Virus record (IMG/VR): IMGVR_UViG_3300032288_005197
Span: 1-64,000 of that record
DNA from: a virus
Reading direction: 5' to 3' (one strand)
Length of the DNA stretch: 64,000 nt
In this document: piece after piece, positions 1 through 16,021 of the stretch
How the letters are laid out: every line of letters begins with the position of its first letter
Position numbering within the stretch: the stretch's first letter is position 1
Notes under the pieces: model-generated
What the model was told of the DNA's origin: nothing
Seen by the model: only the letters and a program-made list of their open reading frames with translations
Database searches by the model: none
Made by a program: the position numbers and the translations under genes

Positions 1-1
1 A

Positions 2-886
2 TTAAGCACAGTTAGAGCAAACATTTCTGAAATTCAAAAGAAGCTTGACATTTACAATAAGAATAAATGTCCTCATTGCCTTTCTGACTTAACTGATGAA
101 GTTCATTCTCAAATCAAGGACAAACTTGTTGCAAAAAAGATTGAACAGGAATCAACATTTCCTGAAATAGCGGAAAAAATCAAAGCTCACGAAAAGACCT
201 TATCTTCAGTAGAGAATGAATCTAGCGAAGCGAAAGGAAAGTATTATCAAATTGAGGCTCAAATCACAGCCGCTAAACGTGAAATATCTGAGCTGAGTAG
301 ACAGGGTACTCAAACGTCGGATAAACATTTGACCGAGGTCATCAATAGCATCAAAGCAGAGATTCAAACCTCGAGTTCTAGCCTATTGGACCGCCAAGAA
401 AAGTTGAAAGTTTCACAAGAAATGGAAATGATTCTATCAGACAATGGCATGAAGAAGATGCTAATGAGTCAAATCATTCCATTACTAAATAAGAAGATAC
501 TAAAGACTGCTAAAGTTCTAGAGTTTAAATTCGCCTTTGAATTCGATCTGGAATTCAATCCAATAATAACTCATTTAGGGATGCAGGTTTCTCCAGACTC
601 TCTATCAGCTGGTGAACAAAAGAAGATGAATCTAATTGTTTTACTCTGTATACTCGAATTAATTAAACTAAAACATAATAAAGTAAATCTACTCTTCTTG
701 GACGAAGTGTTTTCTTCACTAGACGTTGATTCAATATTCAGAGTAGTCGACCTTTTGAAAACTTTTGCTAAAAAGTACGGAATGACAGTTTTTGTTATTT
801 CTCATGATCCTTTACCTGAAGAGTATTTTGATACCAAGATACAGGTTGAAAATACTGATCATTTTTCTGACCTAAAGATCGTTTAG
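2..886 (-). other. Strand note: no feature on the minus strand here; the gp46 CDS is on the plus strand
   Basis: No supported minus-strand ORF in this interval. Confidence 0.05.
2..886 (+). CDS. gp46: SbcC/Rad50-like recombination endonuclease subunit (T4 gp46-like), 5'-truncated by the window
   Basis: Frame open from base 2 with zinc hook CPHC, signature LSAGEQ, Walker B LLFLDEVFSSLD and H-loop VISH. Confidence 0.92.
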   Translation, partial: LSTVRANISEIQKKLDIYNKNKCPHCLSDLTDEVHSQIKDKLVAKKIEQESTFPEIAEKIKAHEKTLSSVENESSEAKGKYYQIEAQITAAKREISELSRQGTQTSDKHLTEVINSIKAEIQTSSSSLLDRQEKLKVSQEMEMILSDNGMKKMLMSQIIPLLNKKILKTAKVLEFKFAFEFDLEFNPIITHLGMQVSPDSLSAGEQKKMNLIVLLCILELIKLKHNKVNLLFLDEVFSSLDVDSIFRVVDLLKTFAKKYGMTVFVISHDPLPEEYFDTKIQVENTDHFSDLKIV

Positions 887-916
887 GCTAACCTTTTCTC
901 ATTTTCTTAGTATTAT
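887..916 (+). promoter_or_regulatory. AAAC-N17-TATAAT class promoter (AACC-N17-TATTAT)
   Basis: Matches the motif seen upstream of several non-structural genes. Confidence 0.5.
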
Positions 917-941
917 ATTTGAATAGTATTATTTCCAAATT

Positions 942-1835
942 ATGATTACATTTAAGGGGCACACTTTTGCCCAAGCATACAAAGAGTCAATTGAGTACCT
1001 ATTGCAGAACGGGATGATCAATAATGCCAGGGGCACTACTAGTAAAGAATTGCTTGATGTTGCCATTGTTGTTGAAGATCCAGCCCAATGTCTTTACGAA
1101 AATGAAGTTAGAGGCTCCCAGCAAAAGTACATCGCTGCTGAATTTCTATGGTATTATGCCGGTAGAAATGACGTAGCATTCATTTCAAAATGGGCAAAGT
1201 TTTGGGAAACCATTCAGAACCCAGACGGAACTGCTAATTCTGCCTATGGAAATTTAATTTTTAACGAAAAGAATAATCACGGGCTTACTCAATATCAATG
1301 GGCAATTCAAAGCTTAATGAATGATTCGAATACTCGTCAAGCAATTCTTCACTTTAACAAACCGACTCATCAATACTTGACAAATAAGGACTTTGTATGC
1401 ACAATGTACGCAAATCTTCACATTCGTCAAAATAAGCTATACATGAGCGTCTATATGAGAAGTAATGATGCGATTTGGGGTACTCCGACGGACGTTGCTT
1501 TCTTTTGTTCTTTGCAAATGCAAATTCACGCTCATCTAAAGGAAATCTATCCGGATCTTGAACTTGGCACATATACTCATGTTGCAAATTCTTATCATGT
1601 TTACGATAGACACTATGATTTAGCTCAAAGGATGATTAGCTCAGACTTTGTGCCAGCTTCGCTGCCGTCAGTAAATACAGATCTAATAGAAATAGACGGA
1701 TCTCCAAGTCAAGATTTTAGTATTGTATTCGCAGCTTCTACTGGTCAAACTAATGAACTTGTACTTTTCCAACAGGACAATGATCTTTTGAAATGGATTT
1801 TTGAAAAACTAAAAGACGATACGAATGTCAATTAA
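942..1835 (+). CDS. Thymidylate synthase family protein, dCMP hydroxymethylase/methylase-like (T4 gp42-like)
   Basis: NSAYG, DSNTRQA, catalytic DFVCT, MRSNDAIWGTPTD with Asp at the substrate-specificity position, SYHVYDRH. Confidence 0.8.
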   Translation: MITFKGHTFAQAYKESIEYLLQNGMINNARGTTSKELLDVAIVVEDPAQCLYENEVRGSQQKYIAAEFLWYYAGRNDVAFISKWAKFWETIQNPDGTANSAYGNLIFNEKNNHGLTQYQWAIQSLMNDSNTRQAILHFNKPTHQYLTNKDFVCTMYANLHIRQNKLYMSVYMRSNDAIWGTPTDVAFFCSLQMQIHAHLKEIYPDLELGTYTHVANSYHVYDRHYDLAQRMISSDFVPASLPSVNTDLIEIDGSPSQDFSIVFAASTGQTNELVLFQQDNDLLKWIFEKLKDDTNVN

Positions 1836-2298
1836 CTCAACTAGCATACAGCGGCAGCATCTAATTGATGTTACCTACATCAAAATGGCCCAAACTTGGT
1901 CAGGCCTTTCTCATGCAATTCGTAAAAAGGTTGGAGCTCTAATCGTGAAGAACAATACGATCATCGCTGATGGTTACAACGGCACGCCTTCCGGTTTTGA
2001 AAATGAATGTGAGATTGCAATAAACCATGAGGACGGTTCATTCAAAGAGTACCAAACTAAATGGTACGTTTTGCACGCTGAATCCAATGCACTGGCTAAA
2101 GTTGCTAAATCGACTCAAAGTAGTGAAGGCGCTACTCTTTATATTACTTACTCTCCATGCACAGATTGTAGCAAATTAATTTTACAGGCGGGAATCAAAA
2201 GAGTCGTATATTTGGAAGAATACCGAGATATTGCCGGCCTTGAGTTCTTAAGAAGAGCTGGCGTTGAAGTCAAAAAAATCGACCCAGAAACCCTATGA
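1825..2298 (+). CDS. cd: dCMP deaminase
   Basis: KVGALIV, GYNGTPSG, HAESNA, PCTDC zinc motifs. Confidence 0.93.
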   Translation: MSINSTSIQRQHLIDVTYIKMAQTWSGLSHAIRKKVGALIVKNNTIIADGYNGTPSGFENECEIAINHEDGSFKEYQTKWYVLHAESNALAKVAKSTQSSEGATLYITYSPCTDCSKLILQAGIKRVVYLEEYRDIAGLEFLRRAGVEVKKIDPETL

Positions 2299-2696
2299 TC
2301 GATTCATTAGAAAGAAAGCTAGAGATAGTTTTCGTACGAGATCAAAAGCAGTTCATTCAAGCTTTTAATAAAAAGCAGAAATGCGATTATTTACTAAATG
2401 TGAATAAAATAATAAAGGAGAAATTCGATCACGAAATACTTGTGCCGAATAAAATCCAAGCATTCCTAATAAATTATGAGATTAAGAAATTAATTGATAA
2501 AGCGATCAATGTTAGGAATCGTAAGTACAACCGAATAATTTACGTTAATGCTGGACTCAGCGTTAGCAATATCAACAACACGATCAAGTTTCTAAATACC
2601 GCGTATGGAACAATCGAATTTGTTCCCAAATTAATAGACGGAGATTTTGAAATTGGAGAACTTTCGGGAGTAGAAACAATAAAAAAGGGGCATTAA
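2295..2696 (+). CDS. Hypothetical protein
   Basis: 133 aa ORF with ATGA overlap to the deaminase. Confidence 0.6.
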   Translation: MIDSLERKLEIVFVRDQKQFIQAFNKKQKCDYLLNVNKIIKEKFDHEILVPNKIQAFLINYEIKKLIDKAINVRNRKYNRIIYVNAGLSVSNINNTIKFLNTAYGTIEFVPKLIDGDFEIGELSGVETIKKGH

Positions 2697-2704
2697 GCCC
2701 CTTT
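2681..2704. terminator. Bidirectional intrinsic terminator
   Basis: AAAAAAGGGGC-ATTAA-GCCCCTTT between convergent genes. Confidence 0.75.
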
Positions 2705-2725
2705 CGTATTTTATTAATTCAGATT

Positions 2726-3076
2726 TTATGCTTTAACTTTCTCAACCTTTCCTGAATAAATCAATGCATCTTCCGGTTTATTCTTGTCATTAACTGCAAC
2801 AATATCGAAATCTCCATCTTTATCCGCTTTTGGCGAAATTGCAATGGTTGCACCGCCTTTAATGCTAGGATTAGTTGAGTTTATCACGTTAAACGAGATC
2901 ATTTCTTTTGTCGTGAATTCGCTATCGCTAGTTCCTTCAACTTCAAATGATTTTCCGTCTGCTGTGATTGTAAGCTTATAAGAACCAGGTTTCGCAGAAT
3001 TAGCCGGCTCCTCCTTTTTTGGAGAAGTTGCCATATCTTCCTCAGCTAACCATTGTTCAAATAATTTGAGCATCAT
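2726..3076 (-). CDS. Putative internal head protein
   Basis: N-terminal LKLFEQWLAEE resembles the T4 capsid-targeting sequence. Confidence 0.55.
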   Translation of the reverse strand: MMLKLFEQWLAEEDMATSPKKEEPANSAKPGSYKLTITADGKSFEVEGTSDSEFTTKEMISFNVINSTNPSIKGGATIAISPKADKDGDFDIVAVNDKNKPEDALIYSGKVEKVKA

Positions 3077-3080
3077 CTAA

Positions 3081-3737
3081 TTATGCGTTTTCGTCCTGGT
3101 TTTCGTCGTCTCCGATAGCGTTATCGTCATCGTCCTGGTTTTCGTCCTCATCGCTTTCTTCTGTGCAAAGTTTCTTAACTGCTGCACATAATAGATCGCA
3201 AATGTCTTCTTTTGCCATTTCCATCTTTTCAGCGATGTCTTCGATGATGTCTTTAAGATCATCTCCGAACTCTTCCATCAAAGTGGCTAATTGTTCTTCA
3301 TCGATTACTGGCTCGTCAGACGGCATATCGTCATCAGTTGGCATGTCATCGTTTGCTGGCATTTCTTCTTCTGCTTCAGCGAACATGTTGAAGTCTTCGT
3401 TAACGAATTGTTCAAAGCGAAGGATTTTTCCTTCTTCAACAGCGTCAACTGTTGCGATTGTTGGTTTTGCGTACATTGGGTCAAATGGTTTTTTCTTTGC
3501 CGTTCTTGAAATTAGGTCACGAGTTACTGCCTTCCAAGTTGGGTCATAATTATGATTGAATTTTCCACCTTCAAAATCGGCATTTCTGTCGATTACTCGC
3601 TGGTAGCCTTTCAATGTTTCTCTTTTTGATGTATCAAAGTCTTTCTTTGAATTTGGGCCTCCGAAACTAGGTTTCTTAGGATTCATGTAATCATCCATTG
3701 AAGGATTACGTCTGTCTTTAGTGTTGAACATGTCCAT
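3081..3737 (-). CDS. Hypothetical virion-associated protein with acidic C-terminus
   Basis: Internal KILRFEQFVNE motif; D/E-rich tail; follows the tail tube gene. Confidence 0.6.
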   Translation of the reverse strand: MDMFNTKDRRNPSMDDYMNPKKPSFGGPNSKKDFDTSKRETLKGYQRVIDRNADFEGGKFNHNYDPTWKAVTRDLISRTAKKKPFDPMYAKPTIATVDAVEEGKILRFEQFVNEDFNMFAEAEEEMPANDDMPTDDDMPSDEPVIDEEQLATLMEEFGDDLKDIIEDIAEKMEMAKEDICDLLCAAVKKLCTEESDEDENQDDDDNAIGDDENQDENA

Positions 3738-3755
3738 ACCTTTAGATGATTATTT

Positions 3756-4340
3756 TTATTGTCCAATTCGTGATTCTGTATAAGAATCAGCTGTGAATTG
3801 TACAGTTAATTTATAGATACCTTCACTTGTGTAATCAAGAACGGTTTCTGTCATTTTGTTTGGTCCAATGAATACTGGCGAGAACATAAAATCTCTAAAG
3901 ATTAGACCTGCTCGGTTGAACTGAGTTACTTGAATGCTAGCATCAGCGTAATCAGTTTTTAGACCTTGACGACCAGTTAGTGGGTTGTAAATTAGATCAG
4001 CCCATGCTCTTAATGCATTGTAAATGTACATATCGTTAGAATTATTCAAGTTGACTTCAAAATCAATTGTGAATTGGTGATATGTTTGAGCTGGTTTTGC
4101 TGGTGCGTAAGTTCTTTGTGAGAATTTATAGTTTTGGATAACTACCGCTGATCCTGAACCTGCGTATTCTGGTAAGCTAGTCACTTTCAATACGTGTTCA
4201 AGCATTAGATTATTACCGAAACCAATTTTTCCAGACACGGCAGGTGGCGGGGTAATGATAACCTCGAACTGGTTAAGGTAAATAGGTTCGTACTTACCGG
4301 GACCTGCTGTTGAATTTTTAAAATGTGGTAGACCTGCCAT
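3756..4340 (-). CDS. gp19: Tail tube protein (gp19-like)
   Basis: EPIYLNQFEV, LRAWADLIYNPLTG..G.K.DY, terminal F.ADSY pattern of T4-like tube proteins; late motif upstream. Confidence 0.8.
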   Translation of the reverse strand: MAGLPHFKNSTAGPGKYEPIYLNQFEVIITPPPAVSGKIGFGNNLMLEHVLKVTSLPEYAGSGSAVVIQNYKFSQRTYAPAKPAQTYHQFTIDFEVNLNNSNDMYIYNALRAWADLIYNPLTGRQGLKTDYADASIQVTQFNRAGLIFRDFMFSPVFIGPNKMTETVLDYTSEGIYKLTVQFTADSYTESRIGQ

Positions 4341-4361
4341 CTTATGTCTTTTATTTTTTAG

Positions 4362-5408
4362 TTATTTATTCTGATCCTGATCCACTTGTTTATCAGGAGC
4401 CTTTTCTTTTTGATCAGGTTCTCTAGCGGCCAGTTCTTTCTGTATTTGCTTTTGAATCGACTTGATTTCAGAAGTAGACTTGTTTCCAAGAGTTATGTTT
4501 GTTGCTTTGATAACGTCAGCTAAGTCGAGTTCAGGTTTTTCCTTTGAGTACACTGTATTAATTTCAGGGGTAAAGCTTAATTCAATTGATGGAAGTATTT
4601 GAGCAAGTAAATTTCCGCCAAACTTAAACTCCTTTTCGTTGAATTCATCAAATGCCATTTTAAATTTGCTACCGAAAGCCCCGCTCATTGAAATTTCTGC
4701 CCAAATCTTTGGCTTATTGTCAACCTGTTCGCCTGACACCTTCTTTGTTAGATTATTCGATATTTTATACAGGAACTTAACGCCAGCCGAGTAAGCTCCG
4801 CGTTCTTGTTGACCTTCAATGAATCTTAATTTGTCTCCACGAACGACTACTGTGTATGCATAGTCTCCAGGCTCAGCAGGCTTAGATTCCTCAGGCTTCA
4901 CCTCAGGTTCATCATTTGCTTTTGGCTTATTGTCTATCACAGCAGGCGGTTGGGGTTGCTCGTACTTAACTAGGGCACCTCCAGAAGAGCCTTGACCTAA
5001 TTGTTTAGGAGCATCAGGTCCGGCAGGTAGAGCTTTCTGATCAGAATCATCGTCTTCATCTTCTTTTCCTGGGCCTAATGCTTTTGGTGCGTCTGGTCCA
5101 GCTGGAAGCTCTGCCTCGTTCTTAGCAGGTTCTTCCTTTTTCTGATCCTTCTTCATCATTGCTATTTTTGCATCAATTATCTTATTGATTTCAACAATTA
5201 GTTCGTTTAGAAGAGACCCTGATGTGTACTTTACGTACTGTGGAGCACCGTATGCTGAGCTGTACTTTAAGTCAGGATACACGTCAGTTTCATGAATCTC
5301 AATCGATTGCTTAGTTTGATCCCATATAGGTTGTTGACCTTTTCCTGGGTTCTTCCAAGTGATTGCGAAACTGATTATTGATTCTGCTATTACGCCTTGC
5401 TCTGCCAA
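4362..5408 (-). CDS. Hypothetical protein with duplicated LPAGPDAPK.LG linker
   Basis: 348 aa ORF in the late operon. Confidence 0.6.
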   Translation of the reverse strand: MAEQGVIAESIISFAITWKNPGKGQQPIWDQTKQSIEIHETDVYPDLKYSSAYGAPQYVKYTSGSLLNELIVEINKIIDAKIAMMKKDQKKEEPAKNEAELPAGPDAPKALGPGKEDEDDDSDQKALPAGPDAPKQLGQGSSGGALVKYEQPQPPAVIDNKPKANDEPEVKPEESKPAEPGDYAYTVVVRGDKLRFIEGQQERGAYSAGVKFLYKISNNLTKKVSGEQVDNKPKIWAEISMSGAFGSKFKMAFDEFNEKEFKFGGNLLAQILPSIELSFTPEINTVYSKEKPELDLADVIKATNITLGNKSTSEIKSIQKQIQKELAAREPDQKEKAPDKQVDQDQNK

Positions 5409-5411
5409 TTA

Positions 5412-5717
5412 TTATCCAATTTCTTTTTCTCCCTGGAATTCTTTTCCACGGTTAGATTTCTTTCTAGTTGGGTCAACTGGCTTGTAGTTAGCCCAAATTT
5501 CATTGTAAATTCTGCAAGAAGCTCCCATGAAATTAACGATTCCAACGTACTTCTTACGGTCTTCTCCCTTCATTTTAGAGATTTTCTTTCCAATGCTTCT
5601 CGCATCGTCCAAATCCAATTCCTCATCATCGGTCTTTCCGACCAAATCTTTAAGAGAATTTTCCTGGACCACATAAGCTTGAAAGGACTGAGCCCTATGC
5701 TTGTTTTGATCTTTCAT
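5412..5717 (-). CDS. Hypothetical protein
   Basis: 101 aa ORF in the late operon; QSFQAYVVQE motif. Confidence 0.6.
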   Translation of the reverse strand: MKDQNKHRAQSFQAYVVQENSLKDLVGKTDDEELDLDDARSIGKKISKMKGEDRKKYVGIVNFMGASCRIYNEIWANYKPVDPTRKKSNRGKEFQGEKEIG

Positions 5718-5735
5718 TTCAGGATCGCTTTTTTA

Positions 5736-6101
5736 TTACTTAGGCATTTTAGCCATGCCAGGCTCAACATTCTTGTTGATAGTCTTTCCTTTGATAACTA
5801 ATTTAGCCATCTTAGGTTCAACTTCTTTCTTGATTGCGCTACCTTTAGTTGTAGGTAATTTAGAAGTTTTTTCGTCAACCGTTTTGTTAATAGCTTTACC
5901 TTTACCTTTAGGAAGGTCAGACATTTCAGGCTTAACTGATTTGCTGATCGTTTTACCATTTCCTTTAGGAAGATCTGAAGTGTTAGTGTCTACTGACTTG
6001 TTAGACTTAGAACCTTTACCTTTAGGAAGGTCAGCCATTTGTTGATCAATTGCCTTCTTTTCAAGAAGAAACTCGCCGTAGCTTAGAACTGATTTGCTCA
6101 T
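5736..6101 (-). CDS. Lys-rich protein with 19-aa tandem repeats, putative internal DNA-binding protein
   Basis: About five DLPKGKG-type repeats; SYGEFLLE at the N-terminus. Confidence 0.65.
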   Translation of the reverse strand: MSKSVLSYGEFLLEKKAIDQQMADLPKGKGSKSNKSVDTNTSDLPKGNGKTISKSVKPEMSDLPKGKGKAINKTVDEKTSKLPTTKGSAIKKEVEPKMAKLVIKGKTINKNVEPGMAKMPK

Positions 6102-6164
6102 TTTGTTTTATTATTTTATGTTGTCTTTAGGAATATTATTTATTTGAGCTCGAATCATAAAAAC

Positions 6165-6193
6165 AAAAAAAAGGCTCTCCATTGGAGAGCCTT
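6165..6193 (-). terminator. Intrinsic terminator after the major capsid gene
   Basis: AAGGCTCTCC-ATT-GGAGAGCCTT hairpin with a U-run on the minus strand. Confidence 0.85.
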
Positions 6194-6221
6194 CTGTTAT
6201 TGTCCTGTTTCGTTATTACGA

Positions 6222-7958
6222 TTAGTAAGAAGCAGAAGGACGAGTTGAACCAGTCAATACGCCTAGGCCAGTTACTTCCATAGTGATGTATTGAGTTTCA
6301 GGATGCCATCCAGCCTCAGTGATTGCATAACGAGACTTCATACCGATCTTAGGAGAGAAAGTTCCCTCTGCGATAGTTTGAAGAGACTCAGCCATGATGT
6401 AAGGTAAGAATTTAACACCTGGTTCTTCGTCAGCACCTTTACGTCCGATGTGGATACGGTTATCGCTGAAAGACAAGTTAGGATCTACGTAGATGGTTAA
6501 ACCATGTACTTTACCTGCAGGATACAATTGACCTGGAGTAGAAGGTAGATCGTTGTTGAATGGAGCGAAAGAGTAACCAGCAACATCAGCAAGAGCAGAT
6601 GCAACACGACCGTTAGTTACGATGTAAGTACCAGCACCGAAACGACCTCTGTGATAGATCAAGTTAGCCATTTCAAGGATTTTGGTTACAACGCGACGTT
6701 GTAGTGTTGAGATGTTCTCGAAACCAGTTGAACCTACAGTTAGGTCAAGGTTACAGATGTTAGAACCTTCAACCGCTTCAAGAGCAGTTTTGTGAGTAGC
6801 ACCTAAAGTTAATACTCTGTCAACCAATTTCTTGTTGATAGATTGAGCAAGTTCGTTAACCGCTACGTTTTCTAACATAGAGATTACGTCGAAATTCCAA
6901 ACTCTGTTAAGATCTTGGATTTGCTCAACTGTTGCAGAGATAGCAACTTGGTCGCCTTTAGCTTCGATGAACTTAGTGAACATACGAAGACCCATTTGAC
7001 GGAATTTAGAAACCTCAGCGTTAGCACGAGTCATTCCACCAAAGTTAGCTTGAGAACCAGTAGCGCCTAAGAAAGGACCGTCTACGTCTGTAGCTTCAGT
7101 TGAACCTGTACCAGTCCACTCGTTATCACTTAGAGAAGTGAAACCAGAGATATGGTTTTCAAGAGCTGAAACTAATTCGAATTTCTCAGAACCTGAGAAA
7201 GTGAATAGAGCAGAACCAGTTACTGAGTAAGCACCAGAGCTGATCGCAGAAACCGCTTTAAGAACTGGAGAACCAGTAGTTAAGTAGTCTTGGATAGAGT
7301 TAGTAGCTGAATCAGTAGCAGAGATTACTTTGAAGATAGGAGTACCGTCAACACGAGATCTTCCAACGTATTGGATGATCAAGTCATCAGTTAGAGCTCC
7401 ATCGATACCGTAGATAGTACCTGCAGTGATTGATGCGATCAAACCTGTACCAGCAGAACCTGCTAATACCGCGCCAGTAAGCTTCACTAGGAATGGCTCG
7501 TATTGTTTGTCGACGTTACCACCTTGGTATACGTAATCTAGGTAAGGTAGGAAACCTACAGGAGAATCCATAGGAACTACACCAACTAGGTCGAAACCGA
7601 TAGTTTTAGCAGCAACTTGGATAGCTACTGGTAAAAGGCTTGGGAATTTATCACCAGAACCTGATACAGTTGAACCGTAACCTGCTTTAGTAGCACCACC
7701 ACCTGAGAATGGAGTCATTGTAGATGTTGGAGCTGAAATAGCGCCCATTGCGCTAATTGAACCTGGTTGTTGTAGGAATAATCCTGGAGCAACCGAAGAC
7801 TCGTTGATAGCACCTGCGTTATCGAAGATAGCATGGTTGTGAGCTAAGTCAACTAACCAAGGACGAGCGTTGATGTCTGCGCCATAACCTTCTAAAACTG
7901 GAGCCCATGTTTCTTTGATTGAAGAGTCATTCAATCTTTTGAAAATTTTTGTTGCCAT
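6222..7958 (-). CDS. gp23: Major capsid protein (gp23-like)
   Basis: TWAPVLE, DLVGVVPMDSPVG, EQIQDL, ELAQSINK, IYVDP, FLPYI, FSPKIGMKSRY motifs; strong codon bias. Confidence 0.93.
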   Translation of the reverse strand: MATKIFKRLNDSSIKETWAPVLEGYGADINARPWLVDLAHNHAIFDNAGAINESSVAPGLFLQQPGSISAMGAISAPTSTMTPFSGGGATKAGYGSTVSGSGDKFPSLLPVAIQVAAKTIGFDLVGVVPMDSPVGFLPYLDYVYQGGNVDKQYEPFLVKLTGAVLAGSAGTGLIASITAGTIYGIDGALTDDLIIQYVGRSRVDGTPIFKVISATDSATNSIQDYLTTGSPVLKAVSAISSGAYSVTGSALFTFSGSEKFELVSALENHISGFTSLSDNEWTGTGSTEATDVDGPFLGATGSQANFGGMTRANAEVSKFRQMGLRMFTKFIEAKGDQVAISATVEQIQDLNRVWNFDVISMLENVAVNELAQSINKKLVDRVLTLGATHKTALEAVEGSNICNLDLTVGSTGFENISTLQRRVVTKILEMANLIYHRGRFGAGTYIVTNGRVASALADVAGYSFAPFNNDLPSTPGQLYPAGKVHGLTIYVDPNLSFSDNRIHIGRKGADEEPGVKFLPYIMAESLQTIAEGTFSPKIGMKSRYAITEAGWHPETQYITMEVTGLGVLTGSTRPSASY

Positions 7959-7977
7959 TTTGTTTTAAAATGTTTTT

Positions 7978-9261
7978 TTAGTTTTGTGCTCTTCTTTGGA
8001 GCATTTCAATGTAAGAATTAGAGTAGCCTCTTAGACTTTCATTGACTTGTTTTAACGAGACATAACCTTCTTTACCTTGGTTTTCGTTAATTGTTTGATT
8101 ATTTATATTTGCTTGGGTAGCAATTCTTTCACTAATTCCTCTAAGATTACGTGAATCCCAGAAAGCTTTAACTTGGTATGGAGTGTTCAACGACATGTTG
8201 TTAGCTTGTGCTGAAATCCAATTTTTTTCACCGTCTGTCATGCTTTCGTATAGCTCTTTGTATTGAGCAGGCATGAATTTAACGTAGTTAGGAGTGTTTT
8301 CAACTTGTTTGTTAAGAACAGCTTCCATGATGTTAACTACTTCGTCTTCTGTGAAGAAGATAGCGCCTTTCATAGTCTCAACGATTGCGGTTTTAGACTC
8401 TTGATCCAAGTTGTAGAAAGCTTGTTTTCTAGCTTCGTTTAACAATTTCAAGAAAGGGTATTTACCTTCCAATACGGCGTTTGCTGTGTTAGATTTAATA
8501 TGAGTTAAAATACCGTCAACTGCATTAACTAGATCGTCAACTGATGAAGTTTCAGAGATTTCAAAATCAGCACTTTCGTTTAATTTCTTAACCTCTCCCA
8601 ATAGAGAACGAGTTTTAGCCGTTGCTCCAGGAATCATTTTTTCATTCAAAGTTTCAACGATGTAGTTAGAATACTTGATACCTTTATCTAAATTTTCTCC
8701 TAAGTAGTTAGAGTATTTGATCGCTGTATCAAGATTCTCAGCTAAGTAGTTAGAGAATTTGATACCGTTTTCAGCATGTTCTGCAACGTGCTCAGAGTAT
8801 TGAATGCTTAGATCAACGTTTTCAGCTAGGTAGTTTGCGTATTCAACTGTCTTTTCAACGTTTTCTGCAACGTATTCAGCATAATTGGCTGTTTCGTTTA
8901 CTTTTTGTCCTAAGTAATCAGAGTAAGCAATGTTCTTTTGAACTTTGTCTCCTAAGTAATCAGAGTAATCAATTACGTTGTTTACTTTTTCTGCAACGTG
9001 TTCAGTGTAGTTAACGCTCTGATTCAACATTGTTGAAAGATAGTTAGTATATTCAACTAGGCTTTCCATTTCGCCAGCTAAGTAGTTTACGTACTCAACC
9101 ATTTTCGAAACTACTGGAGATTCGCCAGTTGAAGCGTTTTCAGAGATCTTTTGAAGACCTTTATTGTTTTTAGAGATGCTCTCTTGTAAAGCTGAGAATT
9201 TCTTTTTAACCAATTCAGAGTATTGGTTCATCTCGTCTTTTGTTACAAACTCATTAGCCAT
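7978..9261 (-). CDS. Putative nested in-frame scaffold protein (starts MANEFVTK)
   Basis: In-frame ATG at 9261, A-rich leader, late promoter motif at 9299-9306. Confidence 0.55.
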   Translation of the reverse strand: MANEFVTKDEMNQYSELVKKKFSALQESISKNNKGLQKISENASTGESPVVSKMVEYVNYLAGEMESLVEYTNYLSTMLNQSVNYTEHVAEKVNNVIDYSDYLGDKVQKNIAYSDYLGQKVNETANYAEYVAENVEKTVEYANYLAENVDLSIQYSEHVAEHAENGIKFSNYLAENLDTAIKYSNYLGENLDKGIKYSNYIVETLNEKMIPGATAKTRSLLGEVKKLNESADFEISETSSVDDLVNAVDGILTHIKSNTANAVLEGKYPFLKLLNEARKQAFYNLDQESKTAIVETMKGAIFFTEDEVVNIMEAVLNKQVENTPNYVKFMPAQYKELYESMTDGEKNWISAQANNMSLNTPYQVKAFWDSRNLRGISERIATQANINNQTINENQGKEGYVSLKQVNESLRGYSNSYIEMLQRRAQN

Positions 9262-9969
9262 TTGCTGTGTATTATTTTGTTTAGGTGTTGTTTCAGAATT
9301 ATTTATTTTATAGATTCTCACAGAATCTTCAAAATTGAAGTTTTCAGAAATATCCGTTAATTTGTTGGTAATCGCAGTAGTCTTTAGGTTGTCTAAAGAT
9401 TCAAAAATCGCTGAGAAGCTGCCTTGTAAGCTTTCAGATACTTGAGATAGTGAAGCTTGTGAGAAACCAGGTTCAGCCACTAGATCGTAAGTAAAAATCT
9501 TATGTAGCTTAACTTTACCGTTCTGGTCAACATTACCTGCCGCTCTAGACGATACTGAGGTTGTGCAGCCTGATTCAACTAGAGTCTTTGCGATCTTTCC
9601 ACATGGAGTGTCAAGAAGACGTAGTCTAATCTTTACGCTATTAGAACCTTCATCGTAACTAAGACCTTCGATTACGTGAGATACGTTAGCTAGAGAAATA
9701 TCAAATTTTTGTGGATGATCAAGTTCACCAAAGAGTCTGCGCTCTTCAATCTTCTTGTTTAGATACTGTAAGTGAGGTAAGTATTCGTTCTTTTCGTATA
9801 CACGATTATTTTCGTTTACGACGCCAAAAACGGCAGCAGTACCTTCAAGAATAACGTCACCGTTAGTTTCTTTAGTTACAGTAACGGCCTCGTTAATTCG
9901 TTCAATGATGAACACCGAATTTTCAGGAACGACCGTTTGGTTTAGGTTAGCGATTTTAGTATTACTCAA
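7978..9969 (-). CDS. gp21: Prohead protease (gp21-like) fused to a scaffold/core domain
   Basis: NENNRVY, GELDHP, SHVI, SSRAAG, YDLVAEPGF protease motifs; C-terminal 14-aa repeat coiled region; TTG start. Confidence 0.88.
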   Translation of the reverse strand: MSNTKIANLNQTVVPENSVFIIERINEAVTVTKETNGDVILEGTAAVFGVVNENNRVYEKNEYLPHLQYLNKKIEERRLFGELDHPQKFDISLANVSHVIEGLSYDEGSNSVKIRLRLLDTPCGKIAKTLVESGCTTSVSSRAAGNVDQNGKVKLHKIFTYDLVAEPGFSQASLSQVSESLQGSFSAIFESLDNLKTTAITNKLTDISENFNFEDSVRIYKINNSETTPKQNNTQQMANEFVTKDEMNQYSELVKKKFSALQESISKNNKGLQKISENASTGESPVVSKMVEYVNYLAGEMESLVEYTNYLSTMLNQSVNYTEHVAEKVNNVIDYSDYLGDKVQKNIAYSDYLGQKVNETANYAEYVAENVEKTVEYANYLAENVDLSIQYSEHVAEHAENGIKFSNYLAENLDTAIKYSNYLGENLDKGIKYSNYIVETLNEKMIPGATAKTRSLLGEVKKLNESADFEISETSSVDDLVNAVDGILTHIKSNTANAVLEGKYPFLKLLNEARKQAFYNLDQESKTAIVETMKGAIFFTEDEVVNIMEAVLNKQVENTPNYVKFMPAQYKELYESMTDGEKNWISAQANNMSLNTPYQVKAFWDSRNLRGISERIATQANINNQTINENQGKEGYVSLKQVNESLRGYSNSYIEMLQRRAQN
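9299..9306 (-). promoter_or_regulatory. Internal late promoter motif ATAAATAA
   Basis: Same motif precedes most structural genes; about 40 nt upstream of the internal ATG. Confidence 0.55.
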
Positions 9970-9988
9970 CGTAATTCGACTTTTTTGA

Positions 9989-9997
9989 TTATTTATA
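9989..9997 (-). promoter_or_regulatory. T4-type late promoter TATAAATAA
   Basis: Exact T4 late consensus upstream of gp21/gp23. Confidence 0.7.
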
Positions 9998-10033
9998 CGT
10001 GCCCCCTTTCATATAAGGTGAGCAGTACTATCA

Positions 10034-10927
10034 TTATTTATTAAAGTCGAGTAGCAAGTCTTTTAAAATCTGTAGTTTTTCTTCACTAATTTTTGAAAAA
10101 TCCGGCTTGGTCACAATTATCTTGAATATGTAATTGCCTCTATTGCCAAAGGCAGAGACCAACCCCTGATTGGGTATTCTGACAGTAATATCATTAAGGG
10201 TGTCCCGGTTGAAAGATTTTATACGATATTTCTTACCAAGTTGACTCTCCAATAGGGTCTCTTCATTGAATAAAACGTCATGCAGTGAGAGCTCAATTTT
10301 TTGAACAAGATCGCTTTGATCAATCTCAAGGCCTAGCGTGTCAATGTTTACTCTGACTACCAAGTCACCGGTCACTAGCATTTTTTTGGTTCTGCCGAAA
10401 AAATCCGTCTCGTTGGCCTCTTGCACGGAACCTCCACCTCTAATCTTTAACAGAATGCAGTATCGACCATTTTCAAATGCGATAGGATAGCCGTTTTCTG
10501 ACAAGTTGACCATCACCTTTACGTTCTTCAACTCGGAACTGGTCGAGCCTCCAACGTTTTTGCTTATTGAGTACTGTACTTCAAACGAACAACCTTCCAT
10601 CAGATCCTTGATTGATGCCCACTTATCAACCGTATGAGTCAAGTTCTTGAAATCCGCACGCCTTCCACTGAATGAAAAGTCTTGGAAGCTATCGTAAAAA
10701 TTATTGTGAGGTCCTCTAGGTCTACGAGAATCATCATAGGCTTTGCGTTTGGTCTCATTACCTAGAGTCTCGTATGCCTCTGCGATCTCTTTGAATTTAT
10801 CCTCTGATTCCTTGCTTCCGCCGTTTTTATCAGGGTGGTGTTCGGTCACAAGCTTTCGATAAACCTTTTTTATTTCTGCCTGAGACGCATTTTCCGCAAC
10901 CCCTAACGTTTGATAATAATTTTTCAA
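10034..10927 (-). CDS. dnaJ: DnaJ-class co-chaperone (J domain, no zinc finger)
   Basis: [25 protein letters not shown]; C-terminal GDLVVRV. Confidence 0.9.
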
Positions 10928-10991
10928 TGACTAAATCTAGTATGCTATTTACAGTATAATACTAAATACCTCAGACAAGTTTACGGTGTCA

Positions 10992-10999
10992 ATAAATAA
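10992..10999 (+). promoter_or_regulatory. Late promoter motif upstream of the glycosyltransferase cassette
   Basis: ATAAATAA 20 nt before the GTG start at 11019. Confidence 0.55.
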
Positions 11000-11018
11000 G
11001 AAAAAGTAAAATTCTCAA

Positions 11019-13055
11019 GTGAAATCAGTATTATTCACCTACTATTCAAATCCAGTACAGGATATTTTCTTGGAAAACGTCGAATCACTACTTAAAAATA
11101 GCGCATGTGTGTATGACGAAATTGTCGTTTGCTCACAAATCGACGTCCCAGTCAAAATAGTAAAAGCTCTATCAAGGCATGCAATAGTGAGTAGAGTTTT
11201 TCCTGATCATAACTCTCAGCAAGTTAAACGAGCATCTAATCCGACCAGGTCATATAAGGTCAATCCATTCATGTTAACTGCCCTCTCCTATAAAGAGTCA
11301 GTTGTTACCGTTTTTGATTCTCACCTGTTCGTAATTAACCCCATTCTTAACTATTCCGGCAACAATATTTTTTATAAGAATCATAGGGGGGTACTAAGCA
11401 CTCAACTTTTTACAATTGTCAATACTGAAGCAACATCCAATCTGCTAGTAAAGGGTTTGATTGATTGCGATTTCACAGATGATTCAACTAATCATAAGTT
11501 TACATTCATTGTTGCAAATGCAGTACCTTTCACGACAGCCATCATCTATGACAAATCATTCATATTTAGCAATCCGTCCGATCAGGATTCGATCGCAGAA
11601 GACAAGTTAATCGCATTTGACCTTTCCGAAACAATGACGTCTTCCGCTATCCACAAACAGATGTGGGCAATTCGAAAAACTTACATTCCAAAAGTATCGA
11701 CTTTGACAAAAATAGCAAATCATGCAAATTCAATAGTTTCAACAGCAGTTGCGGTAATCCAAGAAGTCGAAACTTCATTTACCAAGACTGGAAGTCAAGA
11801 TCCAACCATCCTATTCAAGTACACATCTAGAAGTAGACCCGATCAATTTTATCGAGGCTTAGTTAGCATCATAAATAAGTGCTCAAGTCCAAACTACTTA
11901 ATACTATGCAGCTTCGATCACAACGATCCGACTTTGCCAACCTACTTAGACTACATCAACGATCTAAATAACGATCGGATAACTGTCTGCTTGGGAGATA
12001 GTAAAAGCAAAATAGACGCGATAAACCGTGACATTAACTCTTATGACAAACACTGGGACATAGTCGTTAATATGTCAGATGACATGATTTTTACAAAAGA
12101 AGGATTCGATCTAATAATAAAAAGCGATTTCATTCAATACTTTCCGAAGTTCGATGGAGTGATGCACTATCCTGATCAGGACGCTGGTCAAAAATTAATG
12201 ACCTTATCAATATTGGGTAGAAATTATTATCTTCGATTCAATTACATATACCACCCAGATTATTCTTCTCTGTGGTGTGATAACGAAGCTATGGAAGTAT
12301 CAATGCTGCTTGGAAAATATCGATACTCTCCAGTTAGAATGTTCGATCACATTCACCCAGCGTACGGTCACTGTCAAACTGACGAGCAATATAAACACAC
12401 AGAATCATTTTATCACTCAGATAATGCTGTATACTTGCAGAGAAAAGCAAAAGGCTTTAAGTTGAAGTTTGCAATATTGATCGCAACGATTGAGACCAGA
12501 AAGCCGCAATTTGAAAAATTAAGAAGCTTCATACAGTCTCAAATCATTAAGAATTCTCTGATAGGTCAATGTGAGATCGTTCACATTAGTGACAATAAGG
12601 AAATTTCAGTAGGGTTAAAAAGGCAAAGGCTATTAGAATTAGCTAACAGCAATTACGTTGCATTCATTGATGATGACGATTGGGTAAGCGATGATTATTT
12701 GCAAGTGATCATTAATTCAATAGACTCAAACGCGCCAGACTCAATTGGATTTTTAGTTAGGTGCACGTTTGACGGTTCTGCACCAATCATGGCAAAGGCT
12801 TCAAACAAATACGCTGACTGGGCAGAAGACGTTGACGGTTATAAGTACGTTAGAACGCCATATCATAAAACACCAATCAGAAGAGACCTTGCTGTTCAAA
12901 TAGGCTTTAAGGATATTCGATACGCAGAGGATCATGATTACAGTCGCAGGTTAAAGGCAGCAGGTCTCATAAGAAAGGAAGATTTCATTGATTCTCCACT
13001 TTACTATTATAGTTATGTACACGAAAATCCAAATACAAAATACGGTTTAAAATAA
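11019..13055 (+). CDS. Multidomain glycosyltransferase (two GT-A/GT2-like domains plus a degenerate N-terminal domain)
   Basis: KYTSRSRP..SKIDAINRD..MSDDM..SLWCDNE domain; second domain VGLKRQRLL..VAFIDDDD..AEDHDY. Confidence 0.8.
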   Translation: MKSVLFTYYSNPVQDIFLENVESLLKNSACVYDEIVVCSQIDVPVKIVKALSRHAIVSRVFPDHNSQQVKRASNPTRSYKVNPFMLTALSYKESVVTVFDSHLFVINPILNYSGNNIFYKNHRGVLSTQLFTIVNTEATSNLLVKGLIDCDFTDDSTNHKFTFIVANAVPFTTAIIYDKSFIFSNPSDQDSIAEDKLIAFDLSETMTSSAIHKQMWAIRKTYIPKVSTLTKIANHANSIVSTAVAVIQEVETSFTKTGSQDPTILFKYTSRSRPDQFYRGLVSIINKCSSPNYLILCSFDHNDPTLPTYLDYINDLNNDRITVCLGDSKSKIDAINRDINSYDKHWDIVVNMSDDMIFTKEGFDLIIKSDFIQYFPKFDGVMHYPDQDAGQKLMTLSILGRNYYLRFNYIYHPDYSSLWCDNEAMEVSMLLGKYRYSPVRMFDHIHPAYGHCQTDEQYKHTESFYHSDNAVYLQRKAKGFKLKFAILIATIETRKPQFEKLRSFIQSQIIKNSLIGQCEIVHISDNKEISVGLKRQRLLELANSNYVAFIDDDDWVSDDYLQVIINSIDSNAPDSIGFLVRCTFDGSAPIMAKASNKYADWAEDVDGYKYVRTPYHKTPIRRDLAVQIGFKDIRYAEDHDYSRRLKAAGLIRKEDFIDSPLYYYSYVHENPNTKYGLK

Positions 13056-13058
13056 AAA

Positions 13059-13736
13059 ATGGAAGCGTCAAAAGTTAAAGTTTGCATATTGAATGCATCG
13101 AATGGAACTGGCTGGTATCCAGTAGGTTCTCAAAGGCTCAAAAGATCATTAATACATCATGGATACGCTCATGATCTTTTATTTTTTAGTAACTGGCCAA
13201 ACAACGAATTTGATAAAATGTGTCCGTATAACATAAAAGCGGCAGCATTCGCTGAGGCTCTAAAAAAGGACTACGATATTATATTATGGGCAGATTGTTC
13301 GGTATGGGCAATTAACTATCCATATCCAGTACTTGACATAATAAACCATGACGGTTATTATTTTTGGAGATCTGGTTATAATTGTGCCCAGACCTGCTCG
13401 GATGCATGTTTAGATTACTTTGGAGTTGATCGAGACACGGCAGAAACCTATCAAGATGTTTCAACTTCGCTATTTGGAATTCACACAAAGAACGAGCTTG
13501 GCGCAAGATTCATCAATGAATGGCTAAAATCAGCAAGGGAAGGACAATTCAAAGGTTCTAGAGAACATGACGGTCAATCCGCTGATCCCAGATTTCTATT
13601 TCACCGCCAGGATCAATCATGTGCGAGTCTCATTGCTAATAAACTTGGATTAAAGATTCACGAGGAAGGGAATCACATACAATATTACAAGAAAAAACAA
13701 CCTGATCATCTCATATTCACAATGAGAGGTCTTTAA
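13059..13736 (+). CDS. Putative glycosyltransferase (nucleotide-diphospho-sugar transferase-like)
   Basis: IILWADCS and HRQDQS motifs. Confidence 0.65.
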   Translation: MEASKVKVCILNASNGTGWYPVGSQRLKRSLIHHGYAHDLLFFSNWPNNEFDKMCPYNIKAAAFAEALKKDYDIILWADCSVWAINYPYPVLDIINHDGYYFWRSGYNCAQTCSDACLDYFGVDRDTAETYQDVSTSLFGIHTKNELGARFINEWLKSAREGQFKGSREHDGQSADPRFLFHRQDQSCASLIANKLGLKIHEEGNHIQYYKKKQPDHLIFTMRGL

Positions 13737-13749
13737 AAAACACTACTTT

Positions 13750-14373
13750 ATGTATTCACAAAACGACGAAGAAGCGATTCTTCTACAGCATCTAAATTCA
13801 TTCACTGGCACTTTGCTTGATATTGGAGCAAATGACGGAAAGACTCTTTCAAATTCACTGGCCTTAATTGAAAGAGGCTGGTCGGCGGTTTTAGTCGAAC
13901 CTGCAAAAACCCCATTTTCAAAATTGTCAGATTTGCATAAAGACAATGAGCGAATTCAGTGCGTCAATTTAGCAATCGGTACTCAAAACGGGGAACTTAA
14001 ATTTTATTCGAGCGGAACTCACCTAAATGAAGGTGATACTGATCTTCTTTCAACTTTATGTGAATCTGAATTATCTAGATGGGCAGGTACTGACAATGAG
14101 TTCACTGAAGAAACCGTATCGGTTGTGGATTTTAAAACCTTCTTGGAAAATTGCACCTTCAAACAATTCGATCTAATACTAATTGATGCAGAGGGTTTAG
14201 ATTACGACATATTGACTCAAATTAATCTAGAGGCAGTCGGCTGCTCGACCCTTGTCGTTGAGACGAATAGTAAGGACGATGAAAAGTACATAGAGTACTG
14301 TGCCTCTTTTAATCTAGTGCCTATTCATAAGACTCATGAAAACCTAATCTTTTCAAAAATTCAAATAGCTTAA
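13750..14373 (+). CDS. FkbM family SAM methyltransferase
   Basis: YSQNDEE, LDIGANDG, VEP, IDAEGLD. Confidence 0.88.
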   Translation: MYSQNDEEAILLQHLNSFTGTLLDIGANDGKTLSNSLALIERGWSAVLVEPAKTPFSKLSDLHKDNERIQCVNLAIGTQNGELKFYSSGTHLNEGDTDLLSTLCESELSRWAGTDNEFTEETVSVVDFKTFLENCTFKQFDLILIDAEGLDYDILTQINLEAVGCSTLVVETNSKDDEKYIEYCASFNLVPIHKTHENLIFSKIQIA

Positions 14374-15156
14374 ATGACCCATTTAGACATAACTTCCGGT
14401 ACTGGATTTTTTTCATGTTCGACTGAGGCTCTTCTTCAATTGGTGATTTACTCATCAATAAACGGAAATCTACCAGATTCGATTGATCGTAGTAAACAAT
14501 ACGAGTATCATAAAAACGACTCAGTTACGAATCTAATTCCCTATTATTTCAAGGAATCCGCTGAGGGTTTTGAAGTTCCCAATGGTGTTCAAATAAATTC
14601 AGACGGAGTCTATTCGCAATTCTGTGATTATCGGACAATCCAATTTGATATGATGAACTCTTACCTATCAAAGTACTTTCAACCCAGCGAAAGAGTTAAA
14701 TCTCGAGAATCTGAGTTCATTAAAAAGTATCAAATTTCTCCGGAAAATACTTGCGCGATTTTCTATAGGGGAAATGACAAGGCCAGAGAAACCGTGATCG
14801 CTAGTTATTCTGAATTCATTTCACAGGCTGAGGCGGTCAAAGCTGAAAATCCAAATATTGAATTCCTGGTTCAAACTGATGAGGCTGAATTTCTTGAACT
14901 ATTTTTAGGTAAATTCCCTGATTCTAAATACATATCAGAAATTCCAAGAATTTCCAAACAGGACAATTGGGTTACTCAAGTAATCGATAGAGATTCTCGT
15001 CCAGACTTTGGAGTGGACTTCTTTAGCGCGGTTTTGATACTTGCAAAATGCAAATCTCTCATAACTCATTCAGGCAATTGTGGATTTTGGAGCGTTCTCT
15101 ATCGTGGAACATTTGATGGGGTACGTCAATGGCAAAATGATCATTGGATAATTTAA
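14374..15156 (+). CDS. NodZ/O-fucosyltransferase-like GT-B glycosyltransferase
   Basis: IFYRGNDK, LVQTDE, ILAKCKSLITHSGNCG motifs. Confidence 0.7.
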   Translation: MTHLDITSGTGFFSCSTEALLQLVIYSSINGNLPDSIDRSKQYEYHKNDSVTNLIPYYFKESAEGFEVPNGVQINSDGVYSQFCDYRTIQFDMMNSYLSKYFQPSERVKSRESEFIKKYQISPENTCAIFYRGNDKARETVIASYSEFISQAEAVKAENPNIEFLVQTDEAEFLELFLGKFPDSKYISEIPRISKQDNWVTQVIDRDSRPDFGVDFFSAVLILAKCKSLITHSGNCGFWSVLYRGTFDGVRQWQNDHWII

Positions 15157-15169
15157 AAATTTTATTTGT

Positions 15170-16021
15170 ATGAAATTAGCTGCAGGTTACGTAGTTTTCG
15201 ATGGGCTTGAAACATTAGAAGCCTCAATCAGATCGGTCAGAGAATGCGTCGATATCGTGATTGTTTCTTATCAGACCGTTTCATGGGGAAATACTCAATG
15301 CTCTCCATTGCTTTTGCCCACACTAGAGAGGCTCAAGGAGAATGGTCTAATTGATGTAATAATGGAATTCACAAACTTCGTTCCATCATCCCTAGCTAAA
15401 CCGGACGATGTGATTCGAGCTAAAAAATACGAATGTGATAAGCGACAAACTTGTTTGGAGAAAGCTCTTGAACTTGGAGCAACCCACTACATGTCAATGG
15501 ACGCTGACGAATTCTACATAAAGGAACAATTCGAGGAGGCAAAGCGCCAAATCGTAAATGATAAGTTACAGGCAACAGCAGTTCGTTACATAAACTACTT
15601 GACTCCAACTCTGCATCAAGGCTATTCTAGATTTAAAGTACCATTCATTTATGAAATTGGGCCAAAGAGTCGACACCATTCTGTCCAGTTCATGTTTTCG
15701 GATATCGATCCAACTCGCGGACTCACTGATGATTCATACACCAGATCTAGGGTTTTTGAACGTGACTTGATAACGATGCACCACATGGAGATGGTTAGGG
15801 AAGATTTGCTTGGAAAGTACCAAGCCTCAAGCCGATATTTCAGGAAACGAGAGGATCTTCCAACCCTGGCTGAGGACATCGCTCATGCAAAGAAAACCAA
15901 GGAGCTTAGGTTTAGAGCAATCCATTTTGGTGATTCACTAAGCGGTTTAAATAAGGAGTTGGTATTGACTGAATGCGAAGACCGTTTCGATTTACATTCC
16001 TACCGTTACGGTACCAGATAG
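15170..16021 (+). CDS. GT2-like glycosyltransferase
   Basis: LEASIRSVR, KRQTCL, MSMDADEFY (DxD), MHH. Confidence 0.7.
   Translation: MKLAAGYVVFDGLETLEASIRSVRECVDIVIVSYQTVSWGNTQCSPLLLPTLERLKENGLIDVIMEFTNFVPSSLAKPDDVIRAKKYECDKRQTCLEKALELGATHYMSMDADEFYIKEQFEEAKRQIVNDKLQATAVRYINYLTPTLHQGYSRFKVPFIYEIGPKSRHHSVQFMFSDIDPTRGLTDDSYTRSRVFERDLITMHHMEMVREDLLGKYQASSRYFRKREDLPTLAEDIAHAKKTKELRFRAIHFGDSLSGLNKELVLTECEDRFDLHSYRYGTR

Follow-up and report, generated by a model that had tools for sequence, protein, structure and literature searches.

Enzymes of the thymidylate synthase (TS) fold that act on cytosine nucleotides include the deoxycytidylate (dCMP) hydroxymethylase gp42 of phage T4 (EC 2.1.2.8; PDB 1B49, 1B5D, 1B5E and 6A9B), MilA, a CMP hydroxymethylase of bacterial secondary metabolism (mildiomycin biosynthesis; PDB 5JNH and 5B6D), and the flavin-dependent 5-hydroxy-dCMP (5hodCMP) synthases RB69 gp48 and DLP3 gp80. 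Here we compare with them a TS-fold gene (942-1835, plus strand) and the overlapping dCMP deaminase gene (1825-2298, plus strand) of the window, which spans bases 1-64,000 of an 85,560 bp IMG/VR virus record (IMGVR_UViG_3300032288_005197; contig G000) that amounts to ~32% of a genome according to CheckV. We consider it probable that the product of the first of these genes is a T4 gp42-type, folate-dependent dCMP hydroxymethylase, operating in a T4-like nucleotide scheme, and that the virion DNA contains 5-hydroxymethylcytosine (5hmC) in place of cytosine. The use of 5hmC against restriction is a well-known trick, here in one more phage group. The source belongs to a clade of uncultured jumbo phages with genomes of ~250-270 kb that are not close to T4, and a DNA search of a phage collection with bases 1-20000 gave zero matches. 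Parts of the window occur in 20 entries from public sequencing runs, all of them in the form of assembled contigs.

A recent study (NAR 2026, PMC13326640) sets out a residue code for enzymes of this fold in E. coli numbering, which is used throughout. Replacement of Asn177 by Asp (N177D) gives specificity for cytosine, Leu143 keeps water out and leads to a methyl product, Asp or Glu at position 143 goes with hydroxymethylation, and D169N is the mark of the 5hodCMP synthases, namely RB69 gp48, for which this activity is proven, DLP3 gp80, and nine more that were successfully picked as active by this exchange and tested. Two other reports add that positions 147 and 177 discriminate best between modified and unmodified contigs and that TS, dCMP deaminase and nucleoside triphosphate (NTP) pyrophosphohydrolase genes co-occur on cytosine-modified contigs (Yang et al., eLife 2021, PMC8670742), and that Ser167 and Arg126 are the residues of enzymes with deoxyribose substrates, MilA and BcmA having Ala and Lys (PMC5175136).

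Residue pattern and phylogeny of the TS-fold protein

The 297 amino acid (aa) product of open reading frame (ORF) 942-1835 matches the Pfam family Thymidylat_synt (PF00303) over residues 12-261 with 79.3 bits (cut-off 24.3). In sequence comparison with solved structures the two cytosine hydroxymethylases come first, MilA at 2.6e-20 and the T4 enzyme at 5.3e-14, and the best of the true thymidylate synthases in the PDB follows at 2.9e-12 (E. coli ThyA at ~3e-8). None of six NCBIfam ThyA equivalog models reaches its cut-off, with scores of 35-62 bits against cut-offs of 108-405, and D177, D143 and T147 stand where canonical ThyA (EC 2.1.1.45) has Asn177, Leu143 and His147. The full signature is E58, W80, R126, D143, C146, T147, R166, S167, D169, D177, H207 and Y209. 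The catalytic Cys (E. coli C146) is aligned within the motif DFVCT, and the final D of RSNDAIWGTPTD corresponds to ThyA Asn177 and T4 gp42 Asp179, as placed by HMMER alignment to the T4 enzyme and MilA and by MAFFT and residue offset to E. coli ThyA; the same segment aligns with RSNDVVFGFRND of T4 gp42 and RSCDVFLGLPFN of E. coli ThyA. These ORFs and alignments agree with a preliminary description of the window, which had noted a TS-family protein with Asp at the Asn177 position of ThyA and an overlapping dCMP deaminase, and the motifs quoted there (RSNDAIWGTPTD, NSAYG, DFVCT and SYHVYDRHY) are all present in the translation.

Positions 143, 169 and 177 were compared with those of T4 gp42, RB69 gp48, E. 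coli ThyA, an SPO1-like dUMP hydroxymethylase and the enzyme of Xanthomonas phage DoCa10. The fast MAFFT alignment mis-gapped the region ahead of the Cys and the RB69 row, and the three positions were read by residue offset from the Cys and by motif. Read in this way the query pattern is D/D/D, which is that of T4 gp42; the others are E/N/D (RB69 gp48), L/D/N (E. coli ThyA, and also the second ThyA of relatives described below), D/D/N (the SPO1-like enzyme) and N/D/D (the DoCa10 enzyme). Asp143 lies three residues ahead of the Cys, as in T4 gp42, at a position occupied by Leu in E. coli ThyA and in the ThyA of the relatives, and Asp169 falls in the motif RSND, the counterpart of RSQN in RB69 gp48, such that the D169N exchange of the 5hodCMP synthases is absent. 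D143 together with the retained D169 narrows the predicted product to 5-hydroxymethyl-dCMP (hmdCMP); the preliminary description had left the choice between 5-hydroxymethyl-, 5-methyl- and 5-hydroxy-dCMP, of which the first is favored by these two residues, shared with T4 gp42, and the other two are disfavored. After removal of rows shorter than 220 aa, D/D/D is found in 119 of 120 close relatives and in 132 of 139 distant cluster representatives. T147 is also common to the query and T4 gp42, and the likeness to gp42 extends from the TS fold to the same residues at positions 58, 80, 94, 126, 143, 146, 147, 165-169, 173, 177, 207 and 209. On the assignments of PMC5175136, the presence of Ser167 and Arg126 suggests that the sugar of the substrate is deoxyribose.

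A quick maximum-likelihood tree was built from 50 rows, made up of 9 references, 6 close relatives and one in four of the distant representatives that passed a 230-420 aa filter, with SH-aLRT support only. The query clade lies inside the radiation that contains T4 gp42, separate from ThyA (SH-aLRT 99), the DoCa10 enzyme and RB69 gp48. The view taken in the preliminary description that the protein belongs to the cytosine-type branch of TS-family enzymes is supported, and DNA with modified cytosine is still the best reading of the locus. A protein search identified 641 relatives of the TS homologue at E <= 1e-10, and a relative is encoded on 278 viral contigs.

Gene order and pathway partners

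Five of these relatives are referred to individually. G001 (270,962 bp, terminal repeats) is complete, G002 and G003 are 253 kb each and 93-94% complete (these three are the near-complete relatives, 253-271 kb), and the two closest relatives, G004 (180 kb; TS homologue 90% identical) and G005, are both incomplete. G000 is collinear with G001, with tblastn matches for 88 of 114 ORFs. Membership in the freshwater bS21 jumbo-phage group (PMC9723584) was considered and set aside, no S21 gene scoring above the cut-off in the contig.

The TS homologue gene overlaps the deaminase ORF (1825-2298, 157 aa) by 11 nucleotides (nt; ATGTCAATTAA), which in turn overlaps a third ORF (2295-2696, plus strand, 133 aa) by 4 nt (ATGA), and the three are translationally coupled plus-strand genes. 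The upstream neighbor (2-886, plus strand, 5' end off the contig) encodes the C-terminal end of a recombination nuclease subunit of the SbcC/Rad50 (T4 gp46-like) type, which matches phrog_77 SbcC-like at E 2e-40 and T4 gp46 at E 3.7e-13 (tblastn), with weak Pfam matches to SbcC_Walker_B and the Rad50 zinc hook. The TS homologue is part of a replication and recombination module, and like T4 gp42 it is found beside gp46/47-type nuclease genes. An SbcC-type gene adjoins the TS homologue in 66 of the 67 related loci with at least 1 kb of upstream sequence, and among the 80 loci with at least 600 nt downstream there are 79 in which the deaminase gene lies directly 3' of the TS homologue, the 133-aa ORF (orf133) comes after it, and the whole SbcC-TS-Cd-orf133 block is conserved; the sole exception is the 462-kb phage LR756500, whose TS homologue is 47% identical. 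The order in G004 is NTP pyrophosphohydrolase, DNA polymerase (N-terminal part), UvsX, DnaB-type helicase, SbcD, SbcC, TS homologue and deaminase.

The product of ORF 1825-2298 is identified as a dCMP deaminase of the T4 Cd type: it matches PF00383 (dCMP_cyt_deam_1) with 78.8 bits (cut-off 25) and phrog_174 at E 1.1e-49, shows 37% identity to T4 Cd (E 2e-27), and contains the zinc motifs HAE and PCxxC. The third gene of the block, orf133, is conserved (83% identical in G001) and has no detectable family, with no match at the thresholds used in Pfam, PHROGs and the PDB and no NCBIfam match near a cut-off; it is possibly a third component of the nucleotide module.

Searches of the 85.6-kb contig for thyA, thyX and a dCTPase, an extension suggested in the preliminary description, yielded no second TS homologue, no ThyX and no gp56-type dCTPase, but the relatives gave a different result. 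All three near-complete relatives encode, in addition to the TS homologue, a canonical ThyA (PF00303, 280-290 bits; motifs VLPPCH, RSVD and GLPFN, corresponding to L143/D169/N177) at a distance of 105-148 kb from the TS homologue and outside the span of G000. A homologue of the T4 gp56 dCTPase/dUTPase is present in all four relatives searched (G001-G004; E 1e-21 to 1e-23, 32-36% identity), and in G004 its gene adjoins the DNA polymerase gene and precedes the TS homologue by ~10 kb, a position that would fall beyond the 5' end of the contig. The preliminary description was blind to both genes because the contig represents so small a part of its genome. Taken at the level of homology, the set of gp56-like, gp42-like, Cd and ThyA proteins is the T4 arrangement of gp56, gp42, Cd and Td. 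The canonical ThyA proteins of the relatives (L082, L083 and L084) are 380-401 aa long, with large insertions after the catalytic Cys region and before the C terminus. In the contig and four relatives no trimeric dUTPase (PF00692) was found, as is the case in T4, and no dihydrofolate reductase (PF00186); carbamoyltransferase PF02543 was likewise not found in these five, unlike the 5hmC carbamoyltransferase route described in PMC8670742.

Restriction site frequencies

The sites GAATTC, AAGCTT, GATC and TCGA are common, as had been noted by eye in the preliminary description, but they occur at expectation and are not enriched, and the argument for modification that was drawn from them is weak. 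GAATTC occurs 58 times, with 27.8 copies expected from base composition and 56.5 from a maximal-order Markov model, and the observed and expected counts are 466 and 456 for GATC, 370 and 372 for TCGA, and 42 and 44 for AAGCTT; for 4-mer palindromes containing G/C the ratio of observed to expected is 0.88-1.10. The departure from expectation is at CATATG, which has no copies in the contig (10.5 expected), in G001 (29.6) or in the first 60 kb of G004 (7.3), and is the lone zero-count 6-mer with an expectation of at least 5, being one of 3860 here and one of 4072 in G001. According to PMC7653180, T4 DNA is resistant to 214 of 227 enzymes, and NdeI (CATATG) is among the few that digest fully glucosyl-hmC T4 DNA to completion. 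The absence of CATATG is in keeping with a genome in which most sites containing C are protected and selection still acts on one that is left unprotected, although this is circumstantial. GATATC is also low, with observed to expected ratios of 0.50 and 0.57.

Proposed mechanism and competing explanations

The following scheme is inferred by homology. In the hydroxymethylase, the Cys equivalent to C146 would attack C6 of dCMP, the methylene of methylene-tetrahydrofolate (CH2-THF) would be transferred to C5, Asp177 would pick cytosine, and Asp143 would let water, not hydride, resolve the exocyclic methylene to give hmdCMP, for an overall reaction of dCMP + CH2-THF + H2O -> hmdCMP + THF. The gp56-like dCTPase/dUTPase seen in the relatives would convert dCTP to dCMP and keep dC out of the DNA, the hydroxymethylase would turn dCMP into hmdCMP, and kinases would carry this to hmdCTP, the first of them possibly the thymidylate-kinase-like protein encoded at 33201-33809. 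The phage polymerase would then insert hmdCTP, placing 5hmC instead of C in the virion DNA, and the coupled deaminase would divert part of the dCMP to dUMP for the separate ThyA, keeping up the dTTP supply. Given the separate ThyA and the gp56-like dCTPase of the relatives, supply of dUMP to ThyA is the best reading of the deaminase, as it is its role in T4.

The preliminary description had offered a different part for the overlapping deaminase, by which it would turn hmdCMP or 5-methyl-dCMP (mdCMP) into hmdUMP or dTMP and so provide an alternative thymidylate or 5-hydroxymethyluracil route. Translational coupling and invariable adjacency of the two genes and the lack of ThyA and ThyX on the contig are in keeping with such a route, but the contig is incomplete and the canonical ThyA in each of the near-complete relatives makes an alternative source of dTMP unneeded. 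Moreover, the gp56-like dCTPase of the relatives is sensible only if dC is excluded from the DNA, the set of gp42, Cd and Td is found in T4 also, and co-occurrence of a D177 TS, dCMP deaminase and NTP pyrophosphohydrolase has already been reported on cytosine-modified metagenomic contigs, which share with the present system the three domains and TS homologues of the D177/T147 type (PMC8670742). This route is very improbable. A dCMP methyltransferase that forms 5-methyl-dCMP as in Xanthomonas phage XP12, with 5-methylcytosine (5mC) in the DNA, is also improbable, if somewhat less so. The query retains W80 and E58, and DoCa10, which we take to be an XP12-like phage, has a TS gene that likewise adjoins a dCMP deaminase gene with a HAD gene nearby, its enzyme having D177. 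N177D alone shifts ThyA towards dCMP and yields 5mdCMP (as cited in PMC8670742). Against this, Asp143 of the query is the hydroxymethylating mark, a position at which methylating ThyA has Leu (PMC13326640) and DoCa10 has Asn; positions 94, 147, 165 and 168 are as in T4 gp42 and unlike ThyA, and DoCa10 is outside the query clade in the tree.

The 5hodCMP synthases RB69 gp48 and DLP3 gp80 share with the query the TS fold, N177D and an acidic residue at 143, and the genome encodes a homologue of the RB69 gp45 kinase as well as sugar-nucleotide islands that include a phosphatase homologous to RB69 gp51 (38% identity, E 3e-11), as would suit 5-hydroxycytosine that is subsequently glycosylated. Asp169 is decisive here, since all 5hodCMP synthases tested have Asn in its place (PMC13326640); RB69 gp48 is also a poorer match to the query than is T4 gp42 (E 1.6e-8 vs 3e-15) and lies outside its clade, and the sugar genes lie apart from the TS homologue, all of which makes a flavin-dependent synthase of this type highly improbable. 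Least credible of all is a MilA-like enzyme that would supply a small molecule or RNA, and not DNA, with hydroxymethyl-CMP or some other nucleotide. MilA is the best PDB match and has Asp at both 177 and 143 (PMC13326640), but the query has Ser167 and Arg126, the deoxyribose type, where MilA and BcmA have Ala and Lys, and it is Ala176 and Lys133 that favor ribose in MilA (PMC5175136). The gene furthermore belongs to the replication module of a phage, beside a dCMP deaminase gene and, in the relatives, together with a dCTPase, unlike MilA of bacterial secondary metabolism.

The assignment of the TS homologue as a gp42-type dCMP hydroxymethylase also has several points against it. Only a limited number of tested enzymes underlie the residue rules, and the query is only 27% identical to T4 gp42 overall, with Ala and Gln instead of Lys and Arg at positions 21 and 127, a length of 297 aa compared with 246 aa, and a different C-terminal tail. 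Resolution of the tree is poor within the hydroxymethylase radiation, where T4 gp42, RB69 gp48 and SPO1 form long branches. The dCTPase and the canonical ThyA are seen in relatives only (TS homologue 67-90% identical) and neither on the 85.6-kb contig, and the incomplete G004 and G005 show a single TS homologue only. No homologue of the T4 gp1 dNMP kinase, alpha-glucosyltransferase or beta-glucosyltransferase was found in the contig and four relatives, an empty answer that proves little, and the candidate substitute for gp1 is thymidylate-kinase-like. The avoidance of CATATG is lineage-specific, with 117 copies observed and 174 expected over 80 related loci (782,598 redundant bases), and a host NdeI-type system alone could also explain it.

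If the gp42-type assignment is correct, the T4 strategy of complete replacement of C by 5hmC extends to a widespread clade of uncultured jumbo phages, and the label "thymidylate synthase" on these genomes is a misannotation. The DNA of these phages would likely be resistant to most restriction enzymes and may act oddly in bisulfite, enzymatic-methyl and nanopore workflows. The 143/169/177 code of PMC13326640 tells 5-methyl, 5-hydroxymethyl and 5-hydroxy products apart unambiguously here, which makes the locus a useful test case. The only parts of the system that could yield new chemistry are whichever kinase replaces gp1 and a possible decoration of DNA by the variable sugar islands.

The kinase and HAD phosphatase genes

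The preliminary description had suggested that a dNMP kinase and HAD pair could complete the pathway. The two genes are real and lie on the minus strand, at 33201-33809 (thymidylate-kinase-like P-loop nucleotide kinase, a candidate for hmdCMP) and 33806-34336 (HAD-superfamily phosphatase with a DxDxT motif), and occur together in 15 of 15 related loci. The AF2 model of the P-loop protein (pLDDT 76, from an 8-row alignment) has thymidylate kinases as its top Foldseek matches (E 6e-6, TM ~0.6), and its profile matches that of the RB69 gp45 'nucleotide kinase' with an hhalign probability of 89% (E 2.4e-6); in PMC13326640 (Table 1), gp45 is given as a thymidylate-kinase-like "nucleotide kinase" beside the RB69 cytosine-modifying genes. 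No Pfam, PHROG or NCBIfam family was found for the protein, nothing significant in a PDB sequence search, and no similarity to T4 gp1 or PseT. The model of the HAD protein (pLDDT 89.5) has as its top Foldseek matches the class B/C acid phosphatases AphA and e(P4) (E 2e-4, TM ~0.5), which are nucleotide-active, and its neighbors by feature are HAD_SAK_1 and T5 dNMPase clusters; searches gave no Pfam match and no PDB sequence match. On these models the fold assignments of both proteins hold, and phosphorylation of hmdCMP by the kinase is plausible, a part for the HAD protein in the pathway being conjectural.

Two other views of the pair were rejected. Profile comparison showed no relation between the HAD protein and RB69 gp51. 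A T4 PseT-like polynucleotide kinase-phosphatase acting with the adjacent 622-aa protein as an RNA ligase was considered, and the BLASTP match to PseT is not significant; this RNA-repair reading was dropped for the kinase, whose model fits thymidylate and deoxynucleoside kinases best, with two ordinary RNA ligases encoded elsewhere, and Pnkp1 appears only at rank 17 in the Foldseek search with the HAD model. The 622-aa protein (31327-33195, minus strand) adjoins the pair and is 70% identical in G001; its C terminus holds an HxGH nucleotidyltransferase domain (NMN adenylyltransferase-like, with a weak match to CTP_transf_like), its N-terminal region is without a recognized family, and a PDB sequence search with the protein returned nothing significant.

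Sugar-nucleotide genes

The contig is rich in sugar-nucleotide enzymes, which vary between relatives and could serve to decorate hmC, virions or the surface of the host. That 5hmC is a stepping stone, glycosylated after replication with a phage-activated sugar that differs between close relatives, is a tentative and rather doubtful proposal; if the islands do act on DNA, they would constitute a new family of hmC hypermodifications by glycosyltransferases of non-T4 type. GT2-type genes are present elsewhere.

A five-gene nucleoside diphosphate (NDP)-sugar island at 49512-52139 (minus strand) encodes a PfkB kinase, a cytidylyltransferase-like protein (phrog_7878), a small HAD phosphatase, which is the member of the RB69 gp51 family mentioned above, a cupin isomerase and an NAD epimerase. 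The PfkB kinase gene is present in G002, G003 and G004, as a remnant in G005, and is absent from G001. The logic of the island resembles ADP-heptose synthesis and the RB69 NDP-arabinose pathway. At 28745-31299 (plus strand) are genes for a DegT/EryC1 aminotransferase and an RmlD-like reductase fused to DUF3431, neither of which is present in G001, and a conserved NAD epimerase/dehydratase is encoded at 45272-46189 (plus strand). Beyond the window, positions 78305-80177 of G000 (minus strand) encode a GDP-mannose 4,6-dehydratase (388 bits) and an epimerase/reductase, a pair with only weak matches in G001 (24-26% identity), to the conserved epimerase.

The gene at 11019-13055 (plus strand) encodes a 678-aa protein with two glycosyltransferase-like regions, of which the N-terminal ~230 residues are conserved in five of five relatives (32-91%, in frames of 608-861 aa) and the GT2 part varies. 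It is the first gene of a plus-strand island (11019-15156) between capsid and baseplate genes, and is followed by an FkbM methyltransferase gene and ORFs without assigned function. PDB sequence searches with the 678-aa protein and with a 481-aa neighbor of a sugar island returned nothing significant.

Other genes

The family-B DNA polymerase gene, unlike that of T4, appears to be split in this jumbo phage into two distant genes, with the C-terminal part at 39421-41070 (plus strand) and the N-terminal part at G004 50081-51457, where it adjoins the dCTPase gene upstream of the position of the contig end. A metallophosphoesterase of the T5 A1 'DNA transfer protein' family, possibly involved in host DNA degradation, is encoded at 27158-28729 (plus strand; phrog_1745, E 4e-148), and a ClpB-like double AAA+ chaperone at 52139-54118 (minus strand). 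The two RNA ligase genes lie at G000 71421-72497 and 80205-81341 (minus strand), one product being Rnl2-like with an OB domain and the other T4 Rnl1-like.

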